Assembly: GCA_963790475.1 (NCBI GenBank)
Contig: CAWBOS010000012.1
Span: 32,001-96,000 of the forward strand
Direction: 5' to 3'
Origin: an uncultured delta proteobacterium
GTDB lineage: Bacteria > Desulfobacterota > RBG-13-43-22
DNA: 64,000 nt
The notes below the pieces were generated by a model, which saw only the letters and a list, made by a program, of their open reading frames with translations, was not told the origin of the DNA and did not search any database. Below, one piece after another: positions 24,401-44,540 of this stretch. The position numbers and the translations under genes were made by a program. Every line of letters starts with the position of its first letter. Positions within the stretch are counted from its first letter, which is position 1.

Positions 24401-25107
24401 ATGGAAACATACGCCATGACCCACCCAGGGTTGAGAAGAAAAGAAAACCAGGATCGATATTTTATCCGGGAATTTGAAGACCAAACCGTTCTATCGGCCG
24501 TGGCTGACGGCATGGGTGGCGAGGCGGGTGGCGGATTGGCCGCCCAGACAGCCATTGAGGCCTTCAAAGATTTTAATACCAACTTGGCCAATGTTGAAGA
24601 CTCATTTGCTGCTGTCTTCCAGGTCGCGGACCGAGGATCAGGGAAGAAATCAGAAAGGGTCCCCAATTGGAAGGAATGGGTACGACCCTGACCTCGGCCT
24701 ATTTAAAAAAAGGGGAAATCCATTGGGCCCATGTAGGCGACAGCCGGCTTTATCTCTTCCGGGCCGGGGGGCTGACTCAAGTTACGGAAGACCATACCTT
24801 CGTAACTCGGCTGGTCAAAGAAGGAGCGATAACCAAAGATCAGGCCAGGGTCCATCCCCTGCAAAATATTTTAATTAACTGTCTCGGATGCAAGCCGATG
24901 ATAATGAGCTCCGGCAGATTCAAGATTCAAAATAAAGATTTGGTGCTCCTTTGCACGGATGGGCTTTATCACCAAGTAAGAGACGAGGAATTAGTATCCA
25001 TACTGATCAAAAAAATCAGCATCAAGGAGAAGCTTGAGGGCCTCCTTCAGACCGCCCTGGAGGCTGGGGGGTGGGACAACATCACCCTGGTGGGAGTAAC
25101 GATTTAA
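24401..25107 (+). CDS. Stp1/PrpC-type PP2C Ser/Thr phosphatase; frameshift near 24630-24665
   Basis: RKENQD, VADGMGG | GMGTTLT, HVGDSRLY, LCTDGL, GGWDNIT. Confidence 0.85.
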
Positions 25108-25455: not shown

Positions 25456-26844
25456 CTAATCTTTCTTGGGAACTTCTTTAAGTGCAGAATTAAATAATTT
25501 TAAAAAATCATCATCATTTAACTGCGTCATGTCTACGCCAACAAAGGATTCCGTACCGTTTAGGATGAAATTAGCAATATTGCCTTCTTTATTTGTAGGT
25601 GTATACCAAATTTGGTCACCTTCTTTTTGGATCAAAAGGTCGTGAAATTTTTTCCATTGATGTTTTGGTAAATGATTATTCCTAAATATTGCTGTAATCT
25701 GACGAGCTGGATCATGTACAATTACAATAGCTTTTTTTCTTTCGTCATTCATGCGAGCGAGTATCCCACGTTGTGGAAATTTATCTAAAGGTTCTTTCTG
25801 ATAATAAATAAGAGCATAGTTCCCAGGAAGCTCACGGAGAGGGAGTTGTTTCTTCTGCATCTCGAAAAACGATTGTTGCGCTTGTATCATTGCCTCGAAG
25901 AGAAAACCCATTATAAAAGATACAACTAGTGGATGCCAAACCTGTTGGAGGGCAAACAGTATCCTTCTATGAGTGAAATTACTTTGTTTGCCATTTATTT
26001 CAAGAATATTAGGTCTGAGGATCATTTCCCTAACATAAACTGCTGCTTCTGGTTCGGTAGGATCAATAAAACCATTCTGTGTTAACTTTTCAGATTTTTT
26101 GAGGTACCGATTCCATTCCTGCTCCAAGGCATCAATAGCCTTTTGATTGCTAAAATTGTCGAATGAACTTATCGAGACACATACTGACATTAACACAGCT
26201 TCAATAATAGCCCTCTTCCATTGGGCATCCAAAGATTCTGAAATAAACCCTGGTTGGCGGAATTGCGCAACATGAAGATTTCTTACAATAGTGAAAATAT
26301 GGTCAAATGCTGCGCCTCCAATAGCATCAATTTCGTCAATTTCGCGACGTATCGGTTCTATCGCCTGAATACCAGGATTATCTATATGACATTCTAAATG
26401 TTCTTGAAAGACGATATCGCTTGCAGAGTTGGCGGTACGGGTCCCATGTCCCTTGTGCTCGTCATATACTTTTTTAAAATCTGGGTTGCTACTCATCCCG
26501 CCGATACCAATGAGAACCGCGCTAACAAGTCTAGGGTTTAAGTCGGAGGGTAATTCTTCTTGAGAACCTCTGATTACATGTTCTTCGTAGGCTGGTAAGT
26601 AATCTACTGGTAAATAACAAGCTCGCAGTATTAAATCCGCAAAATAATTATCAAGGCTAGGATTTTTTCGAGTGACGAACTTGGGGATAGGTCCGGGGGA
26701 CGTGTCATTGTCCCGCAATCCTAAGAATTCACGAAGGAGATTAGACGAAGCCAAGACTATATTCTCTACTATTGAAAATCCTTCATACACATCAGGCGTG
26801 AGGTCAGCTGGTTGAATTTGTTTCCCATCCAAGCGTCTATTCAT
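25456..26844 (-). CDS. Hypothetical protein, possibly a divergent MYG1/DHH-like phosphoesterase
   Basis: 462-aa ORF overlapping the upstream gene; PSLDNY and IGIGG...YDEH...SASDIV resemble MYG1/DHH motifs (weak). Confidence 0.5.
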   Translation of the reverse strand: MNRRLDGKQIQPADLTPDVYEGFSIVENIVLASSNLLREFLGLRDNDTSPGPIPKFVTRKNPSLDNYFADLILRACYLPVDYLPAYEEHVIRGSQEELPSDLNPRLVSAVLIGIGGMSSNPDFKKVYDEHKGHGTRTANSASDIVFQEHLECHIDNPGIQAIEPIRREIDEIDAIGGAAFDHIFTIVRNLHVAQFRQPGFISESLDAQWKRAIIEAVLMSVCVSISSFDNFSNQKAIDALEQEWNRYLKKSEKLTQNGFIDPTEPEAAVYVREMILRPNILEINGKQSNFTHRRILFALQQVWHPLVVSFIMGFLFEAMIQAQQSFFEMQKKQLPLRELPGNYALIYYQKEPLDKFPQRGILARMNDERKKAIVIVHDPARQITAIFRNNHLPKHQWKKFHDLLIQKEGDQIWYTPTNKEGNIANFILNGTESFVGVDMTQLNDDDFLKLFNSALKEVPKKD

Positions 26845-27706
26845 CTTTTTCTCCTTCTATATGTCCCGAGATAAGTCCCTTGGTTGTAGCCGCTTTAACG
26901 ACGGCTAGTGCAATGTCGTCCGAAAAATGGCGTAAATGCCGCTTAAAAACTGATCGACGAAATGCTTGTATCGTGGTATCTTCCCCCTTTTTATTGTGTC
27001 CGCAGGTGAATTCGTCCCGGAGGAAATCTTGAAAATCCTGTTTGCCCACCGGAGATGACAAGACGTCATTGATTCCATCACTCGCAATCCATAGGAATTT
27101 CAACGTTTCAATCTCCCCGCTAACATGGATGTCAACTTTTAGTTTCGGCGATCCATATTTCTCAAGTAATGATTGGTTAAAATATAGAGTGGGTGAGTTA
27201 TCAATGGGTGTTATACCATCGTCAATTCCGAAGCAGCCATCACCGAGGCCAAATACCCAGTACCGATTACGTACGACTGCAAGTCCCAGGATAGTAAATA
27301 GAAGTTTGTTAAGAATGAAATCACACCATTCTTTTGAAAGAAATGCCAGTCCTAAGCCTTTGCAGAACCTCTTAAAAAAAGTTATTGTCCTGCTGCCAGT
27401 AATTCGTAGGGCTTTTTCAAATTGAAGATCGTTAATATTGTCGCCATCACGCAATTCTTTTTCAAGAAAGTTCGCCCAACAATATGCCCCCAAAACAGCT
27501 CCAACTTGATTTTGTGTAAAACCAAAATCTGTAGTGCTGCATCCATCGCAGACTACTGCTACTTTCAAATTCGATGATTGGACTATGTGGCATGCGTCTT
27601 GACATCCAAGAGAAACCTCCTTGTGAAGCTTACCTTCCATAACAAAGGATCCAACAAGCAAGTTCGGACTCTCAGGAGCATATACGGAGTAGCTTGGTAT
27701 AGTCAT
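26837..27706 (-). CDS. PP2C-like phosphatase (TerY-P type)
   Basis: H....LGCQDA, VVCDGCS, GLGDG, IASDGI, SDDIALAV. Confidence 0.85.
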   Translation of the reverse strand: MTIPSYSVYAPESPNLLVGSFVMEGKLHKEVSLGCQDACHIVQSSNLKVAVVCDGCSTTDFGFTQNQVGAVLGAYCWANFLEKELRDGDNINDLQFEKALRITGSRTITFFKRFCKGLGLAFLSKEWCDFILNKLLFTILGLAVVRNRYWVFGLGDGCFGIDDGITPIDNSPTLYFNQSLLEKYGSPKLKVDIHVSGEIETLKFLWIASDGINDVLSSPVGKQDFQDFLRDEFTCGHNKKGEDTTIQAFRRSVFKRHLRHFSDDIALAVVKAATTKGLISGHIEGEKDE

Positions 27707-27732
27707 TTAAACCTCTTTTGCTGCCTTAATTC

Positions 27733-28824
27733 TCATGCAGAATACATCATGTCTAAGAGACGAATGCGTGCTTTATCGCGTTCTAATGTTTTCTTCCTTG
27801 CTCTCTCAATCATATCGTTCCAGAGTTCCTCCCAAAATCGTCTTTGACGATCATCTTGAATCAACCTAGCCATCAGGTTATCGGCTCTTTGGGTCCGCTG
27901 GAGAGCTTCTTCCCTTGGGAAATATGAATCCAACATGTCGACCAAAGGGACACGACCTGTTGGGTCTGATGAAAATATTTTTTTAAAATAAGCTTTAAGC
28001 TTAGGTTTACTCTCAAGCCATTTAGGGTTCCTTATATCAAACTTTGGGGGCTGGACCATAGGATCAAGCAATACTGCAGAATAATTATATGATCTAAATA
28101 CGTAAGGATCTTTGCGATATTTCGGGTGAATTCCTGCCCAAGGTGATACACCCATAAAGAGCTCAAAGGCGATGACAGCTAAAGCCCACCAATCGGTCAG
28201 AGCTGAAAACTCTTCATTAGGGCCAACTGCGTCTGGAACGCGATCCCTGATGCGCGGATCGAGATATTGAATCGTGAAACTTTCACCTGGATAATTAGGA
28301 ATTGAACAGGAGTCAAAATCGATTAAATATGGTCTAAGGTTTGAAACAAGGATATTTTGAGGTTTAAGATCGCACATGAAGACACGATTAACGTGCAGGC
28401 TTCCCAAAGCGTCGTTTATCTCATATATGAAATTGGCAATCATCTGATCAAATAGGGGTTCTTCGTTAGGAGCAATTGAAGGCTTCCAACTCATGGAATT
28501 AATCGGTTTCGCATCAGGTAGGTACTTCATAATAAAGCCAACAGCTTGGTTAGTTGGTAACCCTTCAAGGAACACCATCTGCAGCGGAGCCACGACCAGT
28601 TCGTGGAAATTCCTCTTCTGTCCGCAAAGAGTACTCAGTTTCTCACTCATTGAGGAATTAATGGGATAGTCGGGGTACATCTTGACGGCAAACTGATTAT
28701 TCAACTTAAAAACTTCGCCATCCTTACCTCCATCTATGTAATTTGAATTGGTGAGCGTGTAACGCTGTCCGTCAGCGTCAAAAATGGTGATGCCATCGAA
28801 TTTGGATTGGTAAGTAATGCTCAT
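27733..28824 (-). CDS. Ser/Thr protein kinase-like protein (TerY-P type)
   Basis: GGKDGEVF, AVKMY, H...VFMCDLKPQNILV, IDFDS, TDWWALAVIAFELFMGVSPW. Confidence 0.88.
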   Translation of the reverse strand: MSITYQSKFDGITIFDADGQRYTLTNSNYIDGGKDGEVFKLNNQFAVKMYPDYPINSSMSEKLSTLCGQKRNFHELVVAPLQMVFLEGLPTNQAVGFIMKYLPDAKPINSMSWKPSIAPNEEPLFDQMIANFIYEINDALGSLHVNRVFMCDLKPQNILVSNLRPYLIDFDSCSIPNYPGESFTIQYLDPRIRDRVPDAVGPNEEFSALTDWWALAVIAFELFMGVSPWAGIHPKYRKDPYVFRSYNYSAVLLDPMVQPPKFDIRNPKWLESKPKLKAYFKKIFSSDPTGRVPLVDMLDSYFPREEALQRTQRADNLMARLIQDDRQRRFWEELWNDMIERARKKTLERDKARIRLLDMMYSA

Positions 28825-29564
28825 TGTCTATCCTTAATTACATGACTAGAGATCAAATCCATTGCCTTGCGAATTTCTTTAGGGTCGGCGTTTCCTTCGA
28901 TGACGTCCTCAATACCGATTGATTTACCTATCGCTTTAAAATCAAAATCGCCAAGCCCAACAAGAGAGATTCGATGAATAATGCCAGTTTCCAATACGAA
29001 CTCAATGACATTTCTCAATGTTTCTGCTCTTGTCTTGCTATGTTCGTCTTTTCCATCTGTAATTACCGCGACATGAGCCATTACTTGTTGACCCAATTCC
29101 TCCGCTCCGAGTAGTATTGGTGATAACATCGCCAGTGCATGCACAATGGTATCGTATAATGCGGTTCCCCCGTCAGGAACATAGTTCTGGTCATCAAGAA
29201 GTCTAACCTTGGGATGAGCCTGGCGGATGTTGGAAGGATCTCGAAATGGGGTCACATCTTGAAAGTACGGATCCTGGACTTCATGGTTGAAAAGAATTTG
29301 ACCAAAATAAATATTAAGGGCAGAGCTTGCGCCCAACAATGAATTAATGAGGTGGTGTTGCCCATCGATCATTCCAGCCTTAAGAGGTACCATTGACCCA
29401 GATCTATCCAACAGTAACACTAAGGGACGTACGGACACGCCTTCAAGGGGTTGAATATCTTGGGCCTTATCCCGGGCCAGTGTTTGGATAATTTCCGCTA
29501 TCTCTGGCTTCATCACCCCTAAAGATACTAATTGATCGAGCGCTTGTTTTTCTGAAACCGACAT
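28821..29564 (-). CDS. vWA domain protein (TerY-like)
   Basis: MIDAS motif LLLDRSGSM, GGTALYD, VITDG. Confidence 0.88.
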   Translation of the reverse strand: MSVSEKQALDQLVSLGVMKPEIAEIIQTLARDKAQDIQPLEGVSVRPLVLLLDRSGSMVPLKAGMIDGQHHLINSLLGASSALNIYFGQILFNHEVQDPYFQDVTPFRDPSNIRQAHPKVRLLDDQNYVPDGGTALYDTIVHALAMLSPILLGAEELGQQVMAHVAVITDGKDEHSKTRAETLRNVIEFVLETGIIHRISLVGLGDFDFKAIGKSIGIEDVIEGNADPKEIRKAMDLISSHVIKDRQ

Positions 29565-29574
29565 ATCTTCCTCC

Positions 29575-31473
29575 TTACAGCGTAAATCTTTCGTATCCTT
29601 TGCCTATAATATATCCATTCGCCGATTCTATCAGCCAATCCTCAGAGCCAAATCCATAAAATGTGGATAGGATCTTATTAGTTTCGGTATTACGGATTTC
29701 TATTTTTCTGTCAAAATCTGCAATTGCTAAAAAGTTATCTCCAATGAGTGTCAGGGATAGAGGCTCGTTTGATAGAGATTCTTGATAACAAATTATTGGA
29801 AAAATAATGTCTCGGACGATAAGTGTATTATCCTCTAGACACAACCAAATTTTTCTGGTAGCTTCGTGGTAAATGGCGCAAACAATACCTTTTGCAAATG
29901 AAATGTTGTTCAGTAATCGACCTTCTGTGCATCGGCTAATGACCAATAAACCATCTTCACCGGAAGATATATAGGCAGGCCGCGTTGGCAATCCAATCAG
30001 GGTGGAAACCGGACCACGGTGATCATTTCTTGAATTAATAAGTTTTTTGGATGCTATTTCCCAAACAAATGTCTTACCCAATTTGCTACCAGCGATGACA
30101 TAACGATTGCTATCACAAAATGATCCTGTTGTAAGATTTTCATTGCAGTTGAATCTTCGTACCAGTTCCCCATTATCTGTCCGTCTAATCTGTAAAAATC
30201 CTTCCAATGTCACTATAAGCAGAAGATTCCCATTTGTCGAAAACTGAACCTGTATCAGATTTGGATATGAATTGAATTCTATTAGGTTATATGTTCCAAC
30301 TGAATCTATATGCCAGCATTCGATTCCCTGAGATAGACCAAGGAGAAGTTCCCATCCTTTTGATGTTTTCCGCATCGCACTCGAAATGAAGTATCCATCG
30401 GTGGTGCGCGGTGTGATAGCAATATGCTGTGACAATTCATTTATTGCCCAGAGATGTACCGTTTGGTTTGCATGAAGTGTTGCCAGCCAATATCCGTCAG
30501 GCGAAGCGCAGATAGTGGGTGCGTAAGATGCCTCTTTTAGTAGACCAGTTAGGTCAAGCCGTATTGGTGTTGATTTTTGTTTTTGAACCTGATCGATTTG
30601 TTCATTTTGTTTTAATGAAATGCTTTCGGAGGTTTTATAACTAGCATACTTTTTGCGAATCCTTTCTGCCTGCTCTGATGTGATAGTGTTGAACCCGGTA
30701 CTTACCCGTATCCCTTCATTAGTCGCACCTTTAATGGTTTGTTTGATTTCGATATTTAATTCCTCTGCTAACTCATAAATTCTTATCTTTTCCCGATGTT
30801 TAATCGACTGAGGTGATTTAGGTCCTGTTAATAAAGGTTTTGATTTTGACCCTTGATCGCTAGTTAAGGGTGGAGTTCTTCTTGAATGATGTATCTTTTT
30901 AATATAATTTTGTTGATCTTGCTGTATCTTGAGATCCCTTCGAAATTTATTTTTAAGATTGATACCTACAGGAAGTTTTCTTGGTTTACCAATTTTGGGC
31001 TTTTTTATTAGAGGTTGTTCCGTTAGTTTCCGATAAAGATCTTTATAGCCTGTATTGCTGTTTAAATCGTAGTACTGAAAAGGTTTAAGAGGTCTGGGAA
31101 CAAATTTCGTATTATTTGGATCAAAAATAATTGGAATAAACTTTTCATTTATTGAATCATTATCGTAGATTTCTTGGTAGGTTAGTAATGATTCAAAACG
31201 ACCACCTTTCCCCTTTCCAGGAGTTTCATCACCTCCGGCACGTTTATCGTATGTTTCTGTGCAAATCACCAAAACATAGTCAGAATTACGGATTTGTTGC
31301 TCCATCCACCGTGGCCACCCCTGTCGAGGAGATTCCTCATATTGATCCAGATTACAATCAAGACCGTCTCGACAGAGACGATCAGCAAGTGCAAGGACGC
31401 TTCTATCGTGCTCTTTGGACTCATGACAGTAACTTATAAAGACCTTCAAATGTTTCTCCAAATTAGTCACCAT
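29575..31473 (-). CDS. SEFIR/TIR + IF2_N-like + WD40 beta-propeller protein
   Basis: KVFISYCHES..LADRL..DQYE..GWPRWMEQQI..DYVLVICTETY; KIRIYELAEELNI..; repeated WD-like units in the C-terminal half. Confidence 0.8.
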   Translation of the reverse strand: MVTNLEKHLKVFISYCHESKEHDRSVLALADRLCRDGLDCNLDQYEESPRQGWPRWMEQQIRNSDYVLVICTETYDKRAGGDETPGKGKGGRFESLLTYQEIYDNDSINEKFIPIIFDPNNTKFVPRPLKPFQYYDLNSNTGYKDLYRKLTEQPLIKKPKIGKPRKLPVGINLKNKFRRDLKIQQDQQNYIKKIHHSRRTPPLTSDQGSKSKPLLTGPKSPQSIKHREKIRIYELAEELNIEIKQTIKGATNEGIRVSTGFNTITSEQAERIRKKYASYKTSESISLKQNEQIDQVQKQKSTPIRLDLTGLLKEASYAPTICASPDGYWLATLHANQTVHLWAINELSQHIAITPRTTDGYFISSAMRKTSKGWELLLGLSQGIECWHIDSVGTYNLIEFNSYPNLIQVQFSTNGNLLLIVTLEGFLQIRRTDNGELVRRFNCNENLTTGSFCDSNRYVIAGSKLGKTFVWEIASKKLINSRNDHRGPVSTLIGLPTRPAYISSGEDGLLVISRCTEGRLLNNISFAKGIVCAIYHEATRKIWLCLEDNTLIVRDIIFPIICYQESLSNEPLSLTLIGDNFLAIADFDRKIEIRNTETNKILSTFYGFGSEDWLIESANGYIIGKGYERFTL

Positions 31474-31586: not shown

Positions 31587-33188
31587 TCATTCTTTCATGG
31601 AATGGACCGCATCAAGATATGCCCGTCCAGCAGGTAGTATTTCATATCGAACTTTGTCGCCCTTGGCGTTTATCCGCCTAGCCAACTCCGGGAAATCCTT
31701 TAGAACCCAATTCACATGTCTGGCACTAATCCGTTCTACATGTTCCGCGTCATTGACGGGAACATCCCGTTCAGTCAGTTTGGCGATGTCAGGACACGCT
31801 GCTGGTCCAGAGATTTGATCCAATGCTCGCAGACATCTGAACATACGCGCCTCTTGGAGAACTTTTCGCTTAAGTTTTATGTTTGATACTCCGGGGAGCT
31901 TACTAAACGCATCCCCCAATAATGCATTTATCTGAGTATGGTAGTCTTCAATCGTTCCCTCATTCTCTATCTTGATATCTGCCAAATCTTGTGCAACCGG
32001 TAACAGTCCAAAACGCCATTGTTGCCTATCGTGCTCTTGGAAATCAAGTAGTGTCTTAATATCCTCGATGCGGCCTCGCTGCAAGTGTCTTTCAAACCTT
32101 GTCCTTTCACTTACATCAATGAAAACAACCTTAGTAGAGTTTGGAAATTGGCTCCTAATATATTGTAACTCTTCAATAAGTCTAAAGCCAGTTATAATTG
32201 TATTGTTACACAAATCCTTGCCATACAAACCGACAATGTACCTAGCTATTATGTCTGGCCCCTTCGCATGGAAAATCTCTTTTGCCAGGTAAAGCGGAGT
32301 AGGCGCTTTTATCCCGTTTTCCTCAGCTATCAGTCGCATGATGTTACTAGCTTCGATGAATCGATATGGGTAGTGAGATGAGACATACTCTCCAAATGTG
32401 GTTTTGCCTGCACATAGCTTCCCGACAATCAGGTACAAGGAAACATCCTCTTTAAACAGGCTGAGATTTGTTGTCAGTTTGGGCTGCTTCATAAAGTACG
32501 ATCCGCTTAAATTGAGTACTGCCGCAAATTCCTCAAGTCTATCAGTAAGAGAGATTAAAGATTTCACGCGAAAGTCATATTCCAGTGATTCCTCAAAAGA
32601 CATTTCACCAAGGCGTTTTTTTGCTCCATTTGGTACGAACCAGCCATTGAAGGAATCAGGCCTAAGCCAAGGATACTGGTCCGACTTATTAAAATTGGGG
32701 GGCGTTTCTGCAACATGACCGCTGGTTTCGCCATGGATGAATACAGGTCTTTTCAAATTGGGCACATGTAAGGCAATATCCGAGTACACAGTAGCGGTTC
32801 GATCGTTCCCATGCTGCCGTAACACGGCATCGATTTCCTTGAAGCTGGTCCTTGCAAACCACTCCTTAATTTTTAGGCCAGGTACAATCTCGTCGGCCGA
32901 ACATAATGCATCAATCTTGACAGAAGTATCCTCAACAAAGAACATCGAGTTAACCCCTAACCGATATTTGATCTCGTCGATGGCGCGGGATAAGAGTTGT
33001 TCTTGGCCCAGGTTATAGTCCTCATGATAAGGATCTTGTGAGCTCTTAAAATGCCGCAATATAAGGCCAACCTTTTGGAAGATCAACCGCGCTTGAATGA
33101 ATTTATCGATACTTGATGTATAGAATCCTATCCCAAGTCGCTTAGGGGAGTTGATGAATAATTCTCTAATCTTAGGTTTAGACATCAT
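31587..33188 (-). CDS. HAM1/ITPase-like pyrophosphatase + P-loop NMP-kinase-like + winged-helix fusion
   Basis: FYTSSIDK, VEDTSVKIDAL, PGLKIKEW, RLGEMS; GKLCAGKTT, GFR..EE, ADIKIENEGT; C-terminal ..VRYEILPAGRAYL. Confidence 0.8.
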   Translation of the reverse strand: MMSKPKIRELFINSPKRLGIGFYTSSIDKFIQARLIFQKVGLILRHFKSSQDPYHEDYNLGQEQLLSRAIDEIKYRLGVNSMFFVEDTSVKIDALCSADEIVPGLKIKEWFARTSFKEIDAVLRQHGNDRTATVYSDIALHVPNLKRPVFIHGETSGHVAETPPNFNKSDQYPWLRPDSFNGWFVPNGAKKRLGEMSFEESLEYDFRVKSLISLTDRLEEFAAVLNLSGSYFMKQPKLTTNLSLFKEDVSLYLIVGKLCAGKTTFGEYVSSHYPYRFIEASNIMRLIAEENGIKAPTPLYLAKEIFHAKGPDIIARYIVGLYGKDLCNNTIITGFRLIEELQYIRSQFPNSTKVVFIDVSERTRFERHLQRGRIEDIKTLLDFQEHDRQQWRFGLLPVAQDLADIKIENEGTIEDYHTQINALLGDAFSKLPGVSNIKLKRKVLQEARMFRCLRALDQISGPAACPDIAKLTERDVPVNDAEHVERISARHVNWVLKDFPELARRINAKGDKVRYEILPAGRAYLDAVHSMKE

Positions 33189-34174
33189 AGGTTCTCTTCG
33201 GTTTCATGGCCGGTATTTCGACCCTTGCAGACCCCGAGGTATTTGGCTTGAGTGGTCTCTTGTAGCGTCTTGTTAATCTTCTCCATCATAGCTGATGCGT
33301 CGGCTGGAGCTATGGCATAGATGAGAGGGCCCATACTACTCATGCCGGCTGCGACATGATCATGTTTGTTGAGGAGTTCCAGAAGAGATCTCACCTCTTT
33401 GCCTTGACCTTGGAGTTCTCGTTGCTTGAAGCCGGTTGTATGAACATCTACCATCGATTGTTTGAGTAGGCGAAGATCGCCATCCATAAAAGCCGGGATT
33501 ATCCCATGATAAACTGCTGCTAATACTCGAAATACCTCTTCTCCGGGAATAGGTGTATTTTGTTGAAAGAACATGATCTCATCATCACCCGTGTATATGC
33601 GGTTGTCCGATAAATAAAGATGGATCTGCCATTGTTCGGGGAATGGCAATCTAATGCTCACGGGTGGGGTCACGGAAGCTTGCCTGGCAGATGATGGTAC
33701 AAAGCCAATCTCTGTAGACTGGGGGTGCCCTAGGTCAACGATAATCCCCCCTTGAAAGAAGACGTTCACTCCTACACCGGAAGCTCCACCTCTGCGGCAA
33801 AGCTGCTTGATATCGTCTGGCAGCAGGGGGTTCCCAAGTAAAGCATTGCAGGCTGATCCGATGGCTAACAATAAGGCAGTTTTGCTGCCAAAGCCGACGT
33901 GTTGCGGTGGAAGGGCAAGGATGTGAACCGTGAACTTTGTGTGCAAAACAGTCGCGATTCTCTCGATGAGTGCATGCACGTCTGCCTCATCACGCTGATC
34001 GATCTTATCTTGGAGTGTCAGTTCATTAACGATTCCAAGACTAGACTCTACCTCTATCGGTAGTGCATCGAGGGAGAACCCGGCTCCGCCATATCGTCGA
34101 TGTGTGATGCCAGCGACATCGATGAGCGTGAGGTGAATTCTAGGAAAGGCTCTAACTATTACCTTTTGTTTCAT
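33185..34174 (-). CDS. Beta-ribofuranosylaminobenzene 5'-phosphate (beta-RFAP) synthase family, GHMP fold
   Basis: PRIHLTLID..RRYGGAG, PQHVGFGSKT, RGGASGVG..F.QGGIIVDLGH, GFKQRE, GMSSMGP. Confidence 0.85.
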   Translation of the reverse strand: MKQKVIVRAFPRIHLTLIDVAGITHRRYGGAGFSLDALPIEVESSLGIVNELTLQDKIDQRDEADVHALIERIATVLHTKFTVHILALPPQHVGFGSKTALLLAIGSACNALLGNPLLPDDIKQLCRRGGASGVGVNVFFQGGIIVDLGHPQSTEIGFVPSSARQASVTPPVSIRLPFPEQWQIHLYLSDNRIYTGDDEIMFFQQNTPIPGEEVFRVLAAVYHGIIPAFMDGDLRLLKQSMVDVHTTGFKQRELQGQGKEVRSLLELLNKHDHVAAGMSSMGPLIYAIAPADASAMMEKINKTLQETTQAKYLGVCKGRNTGHETEENL

Positions 34175-35000
34175 TGGATTCAAACCACTCAATAGGAACC
34201 GGCCGTGAAAATTCCGGATTGTTCCATATCCCATCGAAGTGATCTAATAGTCGTTTATAAAGGGTCCCTTGTTGATTCAACACAAACGTAGGAAAATTCC
34301 TGCTTACATCCCCGATAAGATACGGTCCCCAAAAGAGATTGTCATCGATACGAAAAATGTTGATCGACGGTAGACAGCGATATAGCTTGATTTCAAAACG
34401 GAAATCTCTATTCCTTAATAATTCGGCGCACCCTCGTATGAAAGAGTGCACATCCCGTCTTATATCACCAAGATCATTGTTCTCTTCCTTGTCGCGTTGA
34501 TCGGCAAAGGAGCATTTTGGACTGGGGAACTCCGGATCGAGGAGTAATATTCGAACATTGGCTCGAGCCGCCCACTTTGCGAAGTCATGATGGTAATCTT
34601 CATTAAAAGCTCGAAGCCCAAACCCCATTATATCGATAGCTTCTGACACATGGTCCAGTCGCGTATCATATTCTGCCTTGATTCGAACGGCCCTGCTCTC
34701 GAACGCTTCGATCAAACCAAACTTACGAATGATTTCCATCCGACGAGACTCATCTTGTGATAGCCAGACGTAGAGGAAAAGGACCCAGCCCGCGATTGCA
34801 GTGGCAATGATGGATCCACCGAGCGAGATAATTATCGTATTGCGGGTCGGGTCCCTTAAAGTACTTCCGGAAATCACCAACAATAGTCCAATTACCAAAA
34901 GCACAAAGTGAAGCGCAAGATATATCCAATGTGTTGCTTTGATTTTCCAGATGGCTCGTCTTATGAATCGTATTATATACATGGCGCTATTTTCTCTCAA
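34152..35000 (-). CDS. Two-TM protein with C-terminal PLD-like (DUF5919-like) domain
   Basis: Two hydrophobic helices, then IDIMG..VRILLLDP..IKLY..PSINIFRIDD.LFWGPY..HFDGIW; no HKD motif. Confidence 0.65.
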   Translation of the reverse strand: MRENSAMYIIRFIRRAIWKIKATHWIYLALHFVLLVIGLLLVISGSTLRDPTRNTIIISLGGSIIATAIAGWVLFLYVWLSQDESRRMEIIRKFGLIEAFESRAVRIKAEYDTRLDHVSEAIDIMGFGLRAFNEDYHHDFAKWAARANVRILLLDPEFPSPKCSFADQRDKEENNDLGDIRRDVHSFIRGCAELLRNRDFRFEIKLYRCLPSINIFRIDDNLFWGPYLIGDVSRNFPTFVLNQQGTLYKRLLDHFDGIWNNPEFSRPVPIEWFESNETKGNS

Positions 35001-36226
35001 ACCTTCTTGAAAACGACAATAGTCTCCCGCGAAGGTCTCCTGCCATAGATCCCCATCTGTTGAGCGCTATTGCCTCTGTAACGGACAGCGATCATGTTTT
35101 CGCAGGATAAAAATGTTTGTTCACCTATCGTAGCTGTTAGTTCATCGGTGAGGATTGCTTGGCCGCCATACTGAACATTCCCGACGACAAATCCTATTTT
35201 AGCGCCACCTCTGCAGACACGGGAGATTTCTTTCAAGACTAAGAATATATCTTGAAAATATCCCTCAAGCATTGTGGGAACCCTTGGGTCGTGGTCACTT
35301 TTCCGCATTTTCGACAGGGCTCTGGTCAACGGCAATGGTTGAATATAACCCTCAAGCGCAGGCCGTTGGGGATGCGACTCCGGGTGTGAATGAAAACTCT
35401 GATAGCGAAGTTCACGAGTTTGCTCCCAATCAAGAAAGCTGAACATCAACTCAACGCCGAAAACGCGAGTATAGTCATGACGGTTAGGATATGGCGGAGA
35501 GGTTATAACCGCCGAATAAGTGTAGTCATCATCAGGAAGATAACGTGCATCTGATTGTTTGACTTGCCAGAGAGAACGCCGAGGAAAATGAACATCTTTC
35601 AGATCTTCAAACATTCCCTCTATTTTGGCCTTGAGTGTCAGAGGAATTTCCCTGTAGCCTTTTCGATTTTCAACCCAACTCAACCAGCCGCCAGTGGCAA
35701 TAGCGTGGCTGAATTCAGGTAGAATAGACAGAAGCGCAAGACGGAAAAAATCCTTCTCCTTTTCCAAAGCCTTTATCTCGCTTATTTCGTGTGAGATAGT
35801 ATCAAAAGCCCCCAATAAACGACCGGGCAGGGCCTTTTTTACTAATACCGGGTAATCTTTGATTGGGCCGTTCCATGAAGATGGATCGAGTTTCTTTTCC
35901 AATGCACGCCATGAACGCCTTAAGAGTGTTTCGTCATAATTAGCTACCTTTACCTGGGATGTTAGGACAGACAATGGTGAAATGTCATGTCCCGTAGCAG
36001 GAATTCCCTTTTCCTTCGCGGAAAGGATTGTCGTCCCTGCCCCGGCAAATGGATCGAGAATTCGATCCTGTGAGGTCAAGTTCCATTCCTCAATAAGCCC
36101 ATGAACTAAATCACCGGTGAAACTATGAGGAAAAACATACCAGCGGTGTATAGGCTTCGCCTCAAGTGGTTTGGGCGTCACCCATTGCCTCCATTCCAAT
36201 CTCTCTTCTACAGCGTATCTACTCAT
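34997..36226 (-). CDS. Amino-DNA methyltransferase (probably N4-cytosine, motif I before motif IV)
   Basis: IHRW, ILDPFAGAGTT, VITSPPY, VVGN. Confidence 0.88.
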   Translation of the reverse strand: MSRYAVEERLEWRQWVTPKPLEAKPIHRWYVFPHSFTGDLVHGLIEEWNLTSQDRILDPFAGAGTTILSAKEKGIPATGHDISPLSVLTSQVKVANYDETLLRRSWRALEKKLDPSSWNGPIKDYPVLVKKALPGRLLGAFDTISHEISEIKALEKEKDFFRLALLSILPEFSHAIATGGWLSWVENRKGYREIPLTLKAKIEGMFEDLKDVHFPRRSLWQVKQSDARYLPDDDYTYSAVITSPPYPNRHDYTRVFGVELMFSFLDWEQTRELRYQSFHSHPESHPQRPALEGYIQPLPLTRALSKMRKSDHDPRVPTMLEGYFQDIFLVLKEISRVCRGGAKIGFVVGNVQYGGQAILTDELTATIGEQTFLSCENMIAVRYRGNSAQQMGIYGRRPSRETIVVFKKV

Positions 36227-42238: not shown

Positions 42239-43117
42239 TTAGATTTCCAGCCAGGAATCGGAAAAGAGGGTTTGGCCCAGGATAACCTTGGCCGTCTTCA
42301 CATAGTCTTGCATCTCCTTGGACAAACAGCCCATTTCAAAGTTTTCCCCGTCCATGACCTTGTGAACGATATCGACGATATCCTGACGATTGCCCCGGGC
42401 GATATCCAGTATTTTTTCATCAAACGCATCCACGATACAGGAATACATACCATTACGTTCCAGCATGATCATATAGGTTTGATTCAAGATGGGCCGCAGA
42501 TGGTCCGGGGGCCCGTTGGAAACGTTGGACAATCCGCAGGTGGACTTGGCCCCCGGAGCGATGTCCTGAAGCATGCTCATAAAGGTCAGAGTGCTCATCA
42601 ATTGCTGCTGCTGGATGTTGACCGGGGTGATAATAGGATCGACAAAGATGTCTTCATTGGGAATCCCGCCTTCATTCGCGGCATACAAGAGCTCGGCGGC
42701 GAGGGCCCCGCGTTCATTTTCATCCCGGGGTAATCCTTCGGGTCCCCACAACAGGGCGATCATACAGGCCTCGTATTGTTTACAAATGGGGATCATGGCC
42801 GTATAGCGTTCCGGCCGGGCCATAATGGAATTGATAATAGCCTTGCCCTTGTGGACCTTAAGGCCGGCCTCGATGGCGTCGATGTTGGAAGTATCCAGGG
42901 CCAGGGGGATATCGGTGACCTCCTGAACGATCTTAACCACCCAGGGCATCAGTTCTGCGCCGTCTTTTCTGGCCGGTCCCAGGTTGATATCGATAAAATC
43001 CACCTTGGCGGCGGCCAGTTTCTCAGCCATCTCTCGAATGGGCTTGGGGTCTCTTTCTTTGAAGGCGCGGCCGATTCCCTTGTTGATGACATTAAGATTT
43101 TCTCCAATGGTAAGCAT
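42239..43117 (-). CDS. acsE: Methyltetrahydrofolate:corrinoid Fe-S protein methyltransferase
   Basis: IGENLN, IDINLG, LDTSN, INSI, GLSNVSNG; located in the acs cluster. Confidence 0.9.
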   Translation of the reverse strand: MLTIGENLNVINKGIGRAFKERDPKPIREMAEKLAAAKVDFIDINLGPARKDGAELMPWVVKIVQEVTDIPLALDTSNIDAIEAGLKVHKGKAIINSIMARPERYTAMIPICKQYEACMIALLWGPEGLPRDENERGALAAELLYAANEGGIPNEDIFVDPIITPVNIQQQQLMSTLTFMSMLQDIAPGAKSTCGLSNVSNGPPDHLRPILNQTYMIMLERNGMYSCIVDAFDEKILDIARGNRQDIVDIVHKVMDGENFEMGCLSKEMQDYVKTAKVILGQTLFSDSWLEI

Positions 43118-43196
43118 AGTATTCTCCTTTTAAAAGATTGTGACGAGTGACGGGTATCGAGAAAAAAACTTTTCTTCCGCTCCTTGTTCCTCGCTA

Positions 43197-44540
43197 CTAC
43201 TTAAGCTCTCTAAGAAACTTGGGAATATGGGCTGCTTCTCTGGGACCGACCTTGATCGTCCAGCCCGGCAATTCCTCTTCCAGATCCCCGGCAATAGACG
43301 CCGCATACCCGGGAATAATCAGGTTGCGATGTTTGACTTTATCAGCGATCCCGCTTTTTTTAATAAAAATCCCAACGGCGTCTCCGACGAATTTACCGGC
43401 CGCCCAGGCGGTCATGACCGACAGGCCTTCGGTATCCATGATGCACAACCAGGTGGGAATCCGGCTGCTCTCAATTTCACCGGAAACGATAAAGTAAGTG
43501 AGGGAGAAATTGGAGGTGACACAGACCGGGGAGTTTTCGTCCGGTCCATTAATCTCATAGATCCCCTGGGTCACAGTCATGGGCCGCTGCGGATCGGTAT
43601 AAATATTTAACCGTTCCAACAGAAGGGGAAAGATGGACTCGCCTTCAAAATCGGAAAAGACCACCAACCCGCCGTACTTGGCTACCATCACCGCCCCCAT
43701 CAGGGTCTCCATTTCCAGGTCCTTGGCCATTTCAAAAGGCAGGCAGATGGTGGGAAAGCCGAGGCCTTTTTCTTTTCCCGAAAGGGCCGCCCGTCGGATG
43801 GCGATTTGATCTTCAAAAACCTGTTTGATGCCCCTGGACCCGGAATCCAGGACCAGGTCCTTTAAACCGGCCTTGGTCAGATTATCGGTCAGGGCAATCA
43901 ATCCGGCCAATCCGTCCCCTTTGACGGCCAGAGGGCAACTGGCCTCTTTGGCCAAATCGGCCATGGCCTGCCAGTTATCCTTGGTTGCGGCATAGAGCAG
44001 GGGCTTCCCTCCGGGACAGGCCGCAAGACCCTCTTTCAGGACTTCAGGCTTTTCACTCATTAATATTAAACTAAAATTGCTGGTATCAAAAACCTGTTGG
44101 ACGGTCTTTTTGAATTTTCCGGCATCCCCGGTCATATCCTTAATAGCCACCATTTCAGGCCGTAAGTTCAAGCCGACCCGTTCATACTGGTAGGTGTCCC
44201 ACTTCCTGAGCTTGCCCGAGACGACATCCTGCGCCATATCAGTAGTCAGCAATGCTGCAAAACCGGTAGGATTAAAAAAGGTCTTTTCATGCCGGAACAG
44301 GACCGTCTCTCCTCCGGTCTTGACCGAATGGTCGCCGGCCCCGATAGTCAATGGGCGGATGGGCGGGGCCGAGGCCTCGGCCAGTTGTGCTTTAGCTTCC
44401 TCGGAAACATAGGGGCAGGAGGCCAGTTCGGCCTTGCCGGAAGCCAGATTCATGGCAAAGGCCAAGCAGGTCGGCACTCCGCAATCCCCGCAGTTGGTCT
44501 TGGGCAGCAGCTTGAAGATTTGAATTCCTGTTAATGCCAT
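43197..44540 (-). CDS. acsC: Corrinoid Fe-S protein large subunit
   Basis: LPKTNCGDCGVPTCLAFAM, GGETVLFRHEK, IYTDPQRP, GPREA. Confidence 0.96.
   Translation of the reverse strand: MALTGIQIFKLLPKTNCGDCGVPTCLAFAMNLASGKAELASCPYVSEEAKAQLAEASAPPIRPLTIGAGDHSVKTGGETVLFRHEKTFFNPTGFAALLTTDMAQDVVSGKLRKWDTYQYERVGLNLRPEMVAIKDMTGDAGKFKKTVQQVFDTSNFSLILMSEKPEVLKEGLAACPGGKPLLYAATKDNWQAMADLAKEASCPLAVKGDGLAGLIALTDNLTKAGLKDLVLDSGSRGIKQVFEDQIAIRRAALSGKEKGLGFPTICLPFEMAKDLEMETLMGAVMVAKYGGLVVFSDFEGESIFPLLLERLNIYTDPQRPMTVTQGIYEINGPDENSPVCVTSNFSLTYFIVSGEIESSRIPTWLCIMDTEGLSVMTAWAAGKFVGDAVGIFIKKSGIADKVKHRNLIIPGYAASIAGDLEEELPGWTIKVGPREAAHIPKFLRELK

Follow-up and report, generated by a model that had tools for sequence, protein, structure and literature searches.

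Why should a DNA methyltransferase, a small membrane protein, a relative of beta-RFAP synthase and a HAM1-kinase fusion protein be encoded together? This question is raised by four minus-strand genes at positions 31587-36226 of the 64,000-nucleotide stretch analysed here (hereafter the window), which belongs to contig CAWBOS010000012.1 of an uncultured delta proteobacterium. A preliminary description, made from the letters alone, had regarded the four genes as one nucleotide-based system. Three of them, encoding the membrane protein (TM2), the synthase (RFAPS), and the fusion protein (HAM1K), form the conserved core and are syntenic elsewhere; the methyltransferase (MTase) is not part of this core. 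The three-gene cassette might be an undescribed small-molecule-signalling conflict system, probably directed against phages and of the abortive-infection type, and we consider the chances for and against this reading to be about evenly balanced. It is based on three observations: the enzymes appear to be functional, the product of one step can serve as the substrate of the next, and the remaining protein has the features of a sensor-effector.

The four open reading frames (ORFs) were borne out by the ORF listing and the translations. The gene for the MTase (34997..36226; 409 residues, DNA methyltransferase) is followed by those for TM2 (34152..35000; 282 residues, membrane protein and candidate sensor-effector), RFAPS (33185..34234; 349 residues, or 329 residues with the start at ATG 34174), and HAM1K (31587..33188; 533 residues, HAM1 / P-loop kinase / winged-helix-like fusion), all on the minus strand. 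As had been noticed, each gene can overlap the next. The stop codon of RFAPS and the start codon of HAM1K overlap in ATGA (33185/33188), a junction that was read directly. TM2 ends with TAG at 34152-34154, and it is overlapped by RFAPS with either of the two possible starts of the latter, ATG 34234 or ATG 34174. The MTase ends with TGA at 34997-34999. Its overlap of 4 nt with TM2 is conditional: it requires a TTG start at 35000, and the first ATG (34982) would leave a gap of 14 nt. A strong sigma-70-like site, TTGAGA-17-TATAAT (11/12), is found at this junction (34972-35000, minus strand). It may be due to chance, because 12 such sites were counted in the region versus 10.3 in shuffled sequences; the terminator scan gave 8 versus 5.7, and neither count was above the shuffles.

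The conserved three-gene core

A profile of HAM1K was used to scan the genome contigs, with one genome per species, and 32 loci were obtained. A scan with RFAPS as a single protein had found no relative in the genome contigs; the HAM1K profile succeeded instead. The genes for TM2, RFAPS, and HAM1K are on one strand and in this fixed order in 28 of the 32 loci. The remaining four (L002, L015, L020, and L026) are cut by a contig end where the missing genes would be; in other words, the arrangement is kept in 28 of 28 informative loci. These genome loci are distributed over at least seven phyla: Acidobacteriota, Verrucomicrobiota, Chloroflexota, Pseudomonadota, Myxococcota, Actinomycetota, and Bacillota.

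A second set was collected from the TM2 side and consists of 46 loci, 45 from metagenomes and one from IMG/VR, the latter found by the HAM1K-profile scan of viral contigs. RFAPS is next to TM2 in 38 of the 46. In seven of the other eight, no more than 123 nt are available downstream of TM2 or the contig ends inside TM2; in the eighth (L073), a NUDIX gene is downstream of TM2. The 38 TM2-RFAPS loci run on into HAM1K in 28 cases and end at RFAPS or within 120 nt after it in nine, and in the remaining one (L054) other genes follow RFAPS. TM2 is always the first gene of the cassette. A distant version, approximately 30% identical, has the same order on a plasmid of Rhizobium bangladeshense and on a Cupriavidus replicon. 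The RefSeq annotation of the Rhizobium plasmid reads, in order, DNA adenine methylase, hypothetical protein, beta-RFAP synthase family protein, and non-canonical purine NTP pyrophosphatase. Conservation of order and strand over dozens of unrelated genomes is far beyond chance.

Some loci deviate from the common form. In L054 (5485-7748) the order is NUDIX-TM2-RFAPS, with the NUDIX gene directly upstream of TM2, and neither HAM1K nor a kinase is found in the 1.3 kb downstream of RFAPS. L073 (3-1062) has the order TM2-NUDIX, followed by the contig end. Both NUDIX assignments were made from the Nudix box in the translations. A NUDIX protein beside TM2 in these two loci, one of them without HAM1K, fits a molecule of the nucleoside-polyphosphate type. 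In addition, a cassette gene is split over two frames in several loci (TM2 in L018, L074, and L076/L077; RFAPS in L025 and L045; HAM1K in L029), which could be decay or an assembly error.

Predicted functions of the three proteins

RFAPS had been called a beta-RFAP synthase, and this holds for the family and not for the equivalog. The protein passes the subfamily model TIGR00144 with 186.6 bits versus a cut-off of 113.5 (186.5 in the search of its own genome) and fails the equivalog NF040726 with 197.5 bits versus a cut-off of 328. Its closest solved relative is ForT (6yqq, 1.5e-27), the C-glycoside synthase of formycin biosynthesis, which uses 5-phosphoribosyl 1-pyrophosphate (PRPP). The PRPP-binding residues of ForT are reported to be Arg-19, the turn from His-99 to Ser-104, Thr-106, Arg-135, and Ser-139 (PMC8183095). 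These align to R32, H112-S117, T119, R148, and S152 of RFAPS; among 63 cassette synthases, 62-63 have the same residues at these positions. RFAPS is thus considered to be a putative GHMP-fold, PRPP-dependent C-glycoside synthase.

HAM1K consists of three parts, and its model has a pLDDT of 89.6. The first, residues 20-225 (32514..33131), has the HAM1/ITPase fold. It matches Pfam Ham1p_like (PF01725) with 9e-10 and 39.2 bits versus a gathering score of 22.5, and Foldseek matches it to the Pyrococcus NTPase PH1917, with target-normalised TM-scores of 0.84-0.88. Human ITPA and chains of KomB (9v0g, 3.8e-9; 8zsg; 9xvc) are also among the matches. The sequence of this domain alone found no match among the PDB sequences; a profile was needed. 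The RdgB/HAM1 equivalog TIGR00042 is failed (23.3 bits versus 145.35). In the profile alignment, the base-pocket segment fgYDPIF of PH1917 is replaced by the longer, invariant QYPWLTPxTFNGWF.

The motifs FYTS(N)xxK, E56, FFVEDTS, and DFR show little or no variation among 65 aligned members of the family, the invariant residues being T24, S25, K29, E56, E86, D87, and R207. Since the metal- and phosphate-binding motifs are retained, the HAM1 domain is more likely to be an active pyrophosphatase with a different substrate. It had been left open beforehand whether this domain erases or senses a nucleotide; with these motifs, an eraser seems likelier than a dead sensor of the Kongming type.

The second part of HAM1K, residues 250-427 (31908..32441), is a P-loop kinase related to archaeal UPF0200 proteins and adenylate kinase. 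Its profile matches 3lw7 (SSO1041, adenylate-kinase-related; 3.8e-19) and 3h0k (4.8e-19) in the PDB, 3lw7 is superposed in Foldseek with a TM-score of 0.87, and Pfam places the domain in AAA_17/AAA_18. Residues G256, C259, G261, K262, and T264 of Walker A and the lid arginines R336, R364, R367, and R371 are invariant in 65 sequences. The third part, residues 430-533 (31590..31901), is a small alpha/beta domain with predicted helices and a beta-hairpin (503-506/514-517). Nothing useful was found in Pfam for these C-terminal 103-104 residues in five family members. Its neighbours in the language-model atlas are all winged-helix families, with scores of 0.75-0.81 that serve as leads only. Of the proposed HAM1/nucleoside monophosphate kinase/winged-helix fusion, the first two domains were confirmed, and the third, judged from its topology and these low-scoring neighbours, is probably a winged helix, though weakly supported. 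Homologues of HAM1K number 375 at E<=1e-3. Among the 120 matches listed, most are near full length, and they come from Acidobacteriota, Chloroflexota, Nitrospirota, Myxococcota, and Planctomycetota.

TM2 matched none of the families of Pfam, PADLOC, NCBIfam, or PHROG. Its AlphaFold2 model, built with 69 aligned relatives, has a mean pLDDT of 95. Residues 22-94 (34719..34937) contain two long helices (22-46 and 51-94 by DSSP) that form a membrane hairpin (2TM); the Kyte-Doolittle hydropathy of 19-residue windows exceeds 1.6 around centres 31-42 and 64-73. A weak match to SLATT_fungal covers residues 14-72 (E 0.053; 14.1 bits versus a cut-off of 26.5). Residues 95-270 (34191..34718) form a domain with the phospholipase D (PLD) fold, which is the candidate ligand sensor. 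The earlier call of a 2TM/PLD-like protein thus proved sound.

The PLD-like domain was matched by Foldseek to TrmBL2 (1e-7), vaccinia F13, PLD3, and Nuc. In VIA-align, TM2 residues of approximately 93-272 gave Z values of 9.4-13.3 to about 20 PLD-fold chains, among them TrmBL2 (Z 13.3; root-mean-square deviation 2.4 over 137 aligned residues), DUF1669 of FAM83B (Z 12.5), NucT (Z 12.3), SauUSI (Z 12.0), and the sugar-binding domain of TrmB (Z 11.9). Active members of the PLD superfamily carry the motif HxK(x)4D. The conserved His-x-Lys is absent from the TM2 domain in 69 and in 16 aligned sequences, and the equivalent region has the consensus LPxxNIFRIDDxxFWGPYL; Arg, Asp, Glu, Ser, His, and Trp residues are conserved elsewhere in the domain. 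Its invariant positions include R103, Y111, D123, R150, D170, E173, N214, D219, S233, R234, H254, and W259. Phosphodiesterase activity is very unlikely in a family without His-x-Lys, and TM2 was rejected as a PLD nuclease or phospholipase for the same reason.

The PLD-like domain also occurs in other proteins. An exhaustive search gave 522 representative proteins at E<=1e-3, and 34 relatives with N- or C-terminal extensions were picked among the 150 matches listed. In these 34, the domain is fused to SEFIR/TIR (three), GT4-conflict (two), patatin (two), SIR2_2 (two), calcineurin-like metallophosphatase (two), and helix-turn-helix (HTH) domains (two to three), and once each to DUF4062, cytidine deaminase, guanylate cyclase, and alpha/beta hydrolase. 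The PLD-like part of the fusion proteins is 33-50% identical to that of TM2 in the window. The SIR2, TIR/SEFIR, patatin, metallophosphatase, GT4, and deaminase fusions originate from ENA, Logan, or JGI metagenomes. One conserved non-catalytic domain on many interchangeable effectors is the ligand-sensor architecture of conflict systems; by this analogy, such fusions are what one would expect if a ligand sensor were combined with exchangeable immune effectors. The idea that the membrane protein is a ligand-binding effector has gained support from these fusions, from the missing His-x-Lys, and from the matches to TrmBL2, TrmB, and FAM83B.

Fusions also link the effector to the enzymes. In two relatives (P0218 and P0223), an AAA_17/18 kinase is attached C-terminally to the 2TM-PLD core, and in a gammaproteobacterial metagenome-assembled genome (L004, 1766-3514, plus strand), TM2 and RFAPS are in one open frame. 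These are links of the Rosetta-stone type. In L070 (342-1484, plus strand), a guanylate/adenylate-cyclase domain (Pfam, 9.4e-8) replaces the 2TM hairpin on the PLD-like domain, and RFAPS directly follows. A DUF5919 membrane protein had also been suggested, and here the window's TM2 gave no match to this family (PF19319) at E values up to 1. Two relatives remain below the gathering score of 23.5 bits (P0247, 19.5 bits, E 9.1e-4; P0223, 15.1 bits, E 0.021); judged from these scores, the PLD-like domain of TM2 is probably a distant relative of DUF5919. A tblastn search of plasmids with the PLD-like domain gave no match.

A proposed signalling mechanism and its alternatives

From these features we infer the following scheme, which leads from PRPP through a C-nucleoside monophosphate and its phosphorylation to the removal of pyrophosphate. 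RFAPS would couple PRPP to a common (hetero)aromatic acid, for which p-aminobenzoate or 4-hydroxybenzoate are the obvious candidates, and its product would be a C-linked ribonucleoside 5'-monophosphate that is not otherwise made by the cell. The P-loop kinase domain of HAM1K would phosphorylate this nucleotide. The HAM1 domain would hydrolyse the polyphosphate form back, so as to set or reset the level of the signal; it might also keep the C-nucleotide out of nucleic acids, as an off-switch or a safeguard. The PLD-like domain of TM2 would bind the synthase product or its phosphorylated form, and the 2TM hairpin would then damage the membrane. The winged-helix-like domain of HAM1K and, in the clade of the window, also DNA methylation might gate activation or expression. 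This domain and the MTase are the only candidates for the trigger, and methylation as a self-mark is speculation.

In a wider form, the proposal would describe a new class of bacterial immune signalling. Its messenger would be a PRPP-derived (hetero)aryl C-ribonucleotide resembling RFA-P and foreign to the normal metabolism of bacteria without methanopterin, made by a GHMP-fold synthase, phosphorylated by a dedicated kinase, and cleared by HAM1. An HKD-less PLD sensor, a module not recognised before, would be mounted on 2TM, SIR2, TIR-SEFIR, patatin, phosphoesterase, deaminase, cyclase, or glycosyltransferase effectors, and in one clade a methylation self-mark would gate the response via the winged helix. 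This generalisation is tentative and, on balance, somewhat unlikely.

Several points weigh against the signalling reading. The acceptor substrate of RFAPS is not deducible from its sequence. If unregulated, a single polypeptide that both phosphorylates a nucleotide and removes pyrophosphate from it would run a futile cycle, and no regulator was identified. The kinase step may be dispensable, because L054 is without a kinase, and the assignment of the C-terminal domain of HAM1K is a weak one. Genomic context was seen for one alternative-effector variant only, L070, so that the common use of RFAPS and HAM1K by the variants stays conjecture. When the loci were collapsed at 95% TM2 identity into 66 groups, 29 of these had flanks of 1.2 kb or more on each side, and 14 of the 29, approximately half, had no adjacent methyltransferase. 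Many neighbours are housekeeping genes (ferrochelatase, TamB, Omp85, transglycosylase), and enrichment of defence genes, MTases aside, is not clear among 92 neighbours. Taken as a whole, the interpretation given in the preliminary description is partly supported.

The recurrent methyltransferases could be read in another way: the MTase would mark the host, as in restriction-modification (R-M), and the cassette would be a restriction-like arm acting through a metabolite and the membrane, with the winged-helix-like domain or another part of the cassette reading unmethylated invading DNA. We regard this as unlikely; it could also be combined with the signalling reading, as the trigger. The window's MTase is a DNA methyltransferase, as had been called, by its matches to PADLOC MTase_II (PDLC03224, 3.1e-60), PHROG 18146 (DNA methyltransferase, 4.7e-32), and Pfam N6_N4_Mtase (28 bits versus a cut-off of 26.7). 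In its translation, DPFAGAGTT, the AdoMet motif, is found around residue 60 and SPPY around residue 244; the PDB gave one weak match. Only the two nearest relatives have an MTase of this type beside the cassette; it is upstream in both, with the same orientation as the cassette in L031 and the opposite, divergent one in L035. The L035 cassette is 63% identical to that of the window, yet its MTase arrangement differs.

Elsewhere, other methyltransferases take this place. When the neighbouring ORFs were clustered, a single family proved recurrent: 11 of the 32 genome loci have a DNA adenine MTase of the D12 class (Dam-like). In the Pfam tally of 92 flanking proteins, D12 was counted nine times, N6_N4 twice, and an MmeI-type enzyme once; no family other than the MTases occurred more than twice. 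An MTase is within 1 kb in 20 of the 66 groups, and it is farther away or known from annotation in four more (L004, 1,005 nt; L081, RefSeq annotation; L060/61, 1.9 kb; L003, 4.4 kb). For the 29 groups with both flanks, the number is 13, or 15 when L004 and L081 are counted. The D12 enzymes are upstream on the same strand (with 4-bp overlaps), upstream and divergent, downstream and convergent, or downstream on the same strand; the N6_N4-like enzymes are upstream on the same strand, upstream and divergent, or downstream and convergent. These amount to seven arrangements of unrelated MTases, which speak for the R-M-like explanation.

The MTases also follow the phylogeny of the cassette. In a FastTree tree of 53 full-length HAM1K sequences, rooted at the midpoint, the MTase-bearing loci are in one large clade that includes the window, Actinomycetota, Acidobacteriota, Gammaproteobacteria, and Chloroflexota. 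Among the loci of this clade with visible flanks, nearly all carry an MTase, and only the Myxococcota pair L010/L063 is clearly without one. The exception in the outgroup is the Rhizobium plasmid locus L081, for which the MTase is known by RefSeq annotation. In the alphaproteobacterial/Bacillota clade, an MTase is present in none of the ten loci with visible flanks. The MTase is, in other words, an accessory, lineage-specific partner of the cassette. Its repeated replacement by unrelated families and its rearrangement suggest a functional link rather than chance.

The R-M-like explanation is disfavoured by the ten loci of the alphaproteobacterial/Bacillota clade and the 14 groups without an MTase, and by the nature of the cassette itself. 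Family searches recognised no nuclease domain in the operon, in which the MTase is present, and the PLD fold is without HxK. The sequence of a restriction enzyme, however, often does not reveal it as such. That the C-terminal domain of HAM1K, for which Pfam has no match, binds DNA would be conjecture, and MTases are common passengers on mobile islands.

The kinship of RFAPS with ForT leads to another alternative, which we consider improbable: a module for a C-nucleoside or C-nucleotide antimetabolite. RFAPS and the kinase would make the toxin, the HAM1 domain would protect the producer, and TM2 would regulate or export; the product might serve as a viperin-like chemical defence against phage polymerases or as an antibiotic. 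Enzymes resembling RFAP synthase are reported to form the C-glycosidic bond of C-nucleoside antibiotics (PMC8183095). HAM1 enzymes are annotated as house-cleaning NTPases, and the NUDIX genes beside TM2 in L054 and L073, with no HAM1K after RFAPS in L054, would also suit this explanation. It is opposed by the neighbours, in which only MTases recur and conserved genes for further biosynthetic steps are missing. TM2 does not have the fold of a transporter, and the fusions of its relatives to SIR2, TIR/SEFIR, and patatin fit sensing over export.

The signalling might also have nothing to do with defence. In this alternative, an orthogonal nucleotide-like messenger, for instance for the status of PRPP or the nucleotide pool, would regulate a membrane function or transcription under stress or in normal physiology. 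Many loci, chiefly those of Alphaproteobacteria, are amid housekeeping genes with no obvious mobile or defence neighbours. The PLD-like versions fused to HTH have the architecture of transcription factors, and PLD-like domains of the TrmB type are metabolite sensors, as stated in the title of 2f5t. The extremely patchy distribution of the cassette is unusual for a physiological regulator. HAM1K was found in none of 400 other genomes sampled from the phylum of the window, including ten of the same genus, and a sample of 400 further genomes from the class to which an actinobacterial carrier (G401) belongs contained no TM2 domain. Moreover, sensor-fused effectors such as those listed above, including the Pfam family GT4-conflict, are typical of conflict systems, and the copy in the window is in a low-GC island beside a bSEFIR gene. 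A non-defence role is thus given a low probability.

Finally, an ordinary methanopterin (H4MPT) gene with unrelated neighbours, to which the TIGR00144 match might point, was rejected as hardly credible: the equivalog is failed, RFAPS is the only RFAP-synthase-family gene of the host genome (6.34 Mb in 20 contigs; completeness 100%, contamination 9.68%), the marker MCH (PF02289) had no match in this genome in a search that matched three control archaea, and the constant partners are TM2 and HAM1K, the homologues not being found beside H4MPT genes.

Genomic surroundings and relation to known systems

The cassette of the window is in an AT-richer island, as had been observed: the GC content is 0.38-0.48 across 25-37 kb and approximately 0.49-0.54 on both flanks. 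No tRNA gene was found in the window. Directly downstream of HAM1K is a gene (29575-31473, minus strand) for a SEFIR/TIR-like N-terminus and a WD40 beta-propeller. It matches PADLOC bSEFIR with 1.2e-57, which agrees with the SEFIR neighbour named earlier, and bSEFIR is a catalogued defence gene. This neighbour supports a defence-island context; it is not kept beside the cassette in the other genome loci from the HAM1K-profile scan. Enrichment near defence islands, which had been proposed as a check, is not clear among the 92 neighbours beyond the MTases.

Farther downstream (25456-29564, minus strand) are genes for proteins of 462 and 247 residues that belong to no Pfam family, for a Ser/Thr kinase (1.3e-16 to Pkinase; mad6/MkoA of PADLOC are matched weakly), and for a PP2C phosphatase. 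These genes had been called TerY-P-like. The kinase and the phosphatase are in accordance with this name; the 247-residue protein has no vWA/TerY match and is related only to PHROG 7371 (4.3e-9) and, weakly, to an NCBIfam model. At the edge of the island, an ORF of 146 residues (24667-25107, plus strand) matches only positions 100-141 of the 255 positions of the PP2C profile and is possibly a gene fragment. Upstream of the cassette are genes for a major facilitator superfamily transporter and an HTH-cupin regulator and, farther out, Wood-Ljungdahl genes. Outside the island (42239-44540, minus strand), genes were found for CdhD (6.5e-95), which also has an FeS domain, and for a methyltransferase-like protein of the pterin-binding kind. 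Judged from their sequences, they are consistent with the one-carbon pathway of the tetrahydrofolate type remarked on earlier.

In other genomes, the cassette has mobile and defence neighbours such as TrwC relaxases, resolvases, AbiEii, YafQ, and the R subunit of a type I restriction system. Five carrier genomes contain one copy each. The patchy distribution and the mobile neighbours suggest that the cassette is a rare, horizontally moving accessory element. The phage collection contained no relative of HAM1K at E<=1e-10. The IMG/VR contig of L035 (17.6 kb) is filed as viral, and its flanks encode an Eco57I-like MTase, a NUDIX-domain protein, and a Vut_1 transporter. A viral origin was not accepted for it, with no phage hallmark in the seven flanking ORFs scanned.

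The combination had been thought undescribed, and this still stands. None of the families of PADLOC-DB v2.0.0 (2023), which does not cover later systems, matches TM2, RFAPS, or HAM1K at E<=0.01. Full-text literature searches found no description of the gene combination; supplementary tables and subscription journals were outside their reach, and a listing there is possible. With its function as we infer it, the cassette is rated as lying outside the known kinds of system.

If the proposal is true, C-glycosidic nucleotides from PRPP would be a new chemistry among immune second messengers, a dead PLD would be a new fold for effector-coupled sensors, and HAM1 and nucleoside monophosphate kinase domains would be newly used as built-in eraser and writer of a signal. 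A function would be provided for bacterial genes of the beta-RFAP-synthase family in genomes without methanopterin, and for several hundred fusions annotated as "non-canonical purine NTP pyrophosphatase". Since the DNA MTase recurs and is exchangeable, epigenetic self-marking may be linked, in a way not yet explored, to small-molecule abortive infection. Even if its role is not defence, the cassette is a strictly conserved three-gene module of at least seven phyla without a described function.

Among known systems, Kongming (KomABC) is comparable in that a HAM1-fold protein takes part in nucleotide-based defence, the defence role of the cassette being a proposal. According to a review (PMC13434031), KomB is no longer active as a phosphatase; it detects dITP, in whose production a phage kinase takes part, and works together with a deaminase and a SIR2 NADase. 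In contrast, the HAM1 motifs of the cassette are invariant, its kinase is encoded by the host and fused, and no deaminase or SIR2 domain was found in the four genes or their neighbours.

The single components also have counterparts. RFAPS shares the TIGR00144 family and the conserved PRPP-binding residues with ForT/PyfQ and MptG. Unlike MptG, the archaeal and methylotroph beta-RFAP synthase, it is below the equivalog cut-off and is encoded in a genome without an H4MPT marker; unlike ForT/PyfQ, it is not surrounded by an antibiotic gene cluster. The PLD-like domain of TM2 resembles the C-terminal domains of TrmB/TrmBL2 and DUF1669 of FAM83, which have the PLD fold (129-140 aligned residues) and are not known phosphodiesterases. 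TM2 differs from them in its sequence (10-14% identity) and in a membrane hairpin that takes the place of the DNA-binding N-terminus. As in type II R-M and BREX/DISARM, the MTase is translationally coupled or adjacent and can be swapped between unrelated families; unlike in those systems, there is no recognisable nuclease, helicase, or PglZ-type partner, and about half of the cassettes are without an adjacent MTase.

The closest likeness in logic is to CBASS, Pycsar, Thoeris, and the accessory effectors of type III CRISPR, in which a signal synthase is combined with a sensor-effector. The cassette is likewise a compact operon with a plausible maker of a nucleotide-like signal and a separate sensor joined to 2TM. 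It is patchy and island-borne, and relatives of its PLD-like domain are carried on SIR2, TIR/SEFIR, patatin, and phosphoesterase. It differs from this group in having no CD-NTase, cyclase, TIR, or Cas10 as signal generator. The putative generator is instead a GHMP-fold synthase and the candidate sensor is an HKD-less PLD, with a HAM1-kinase and often an MTase as built-in parts.

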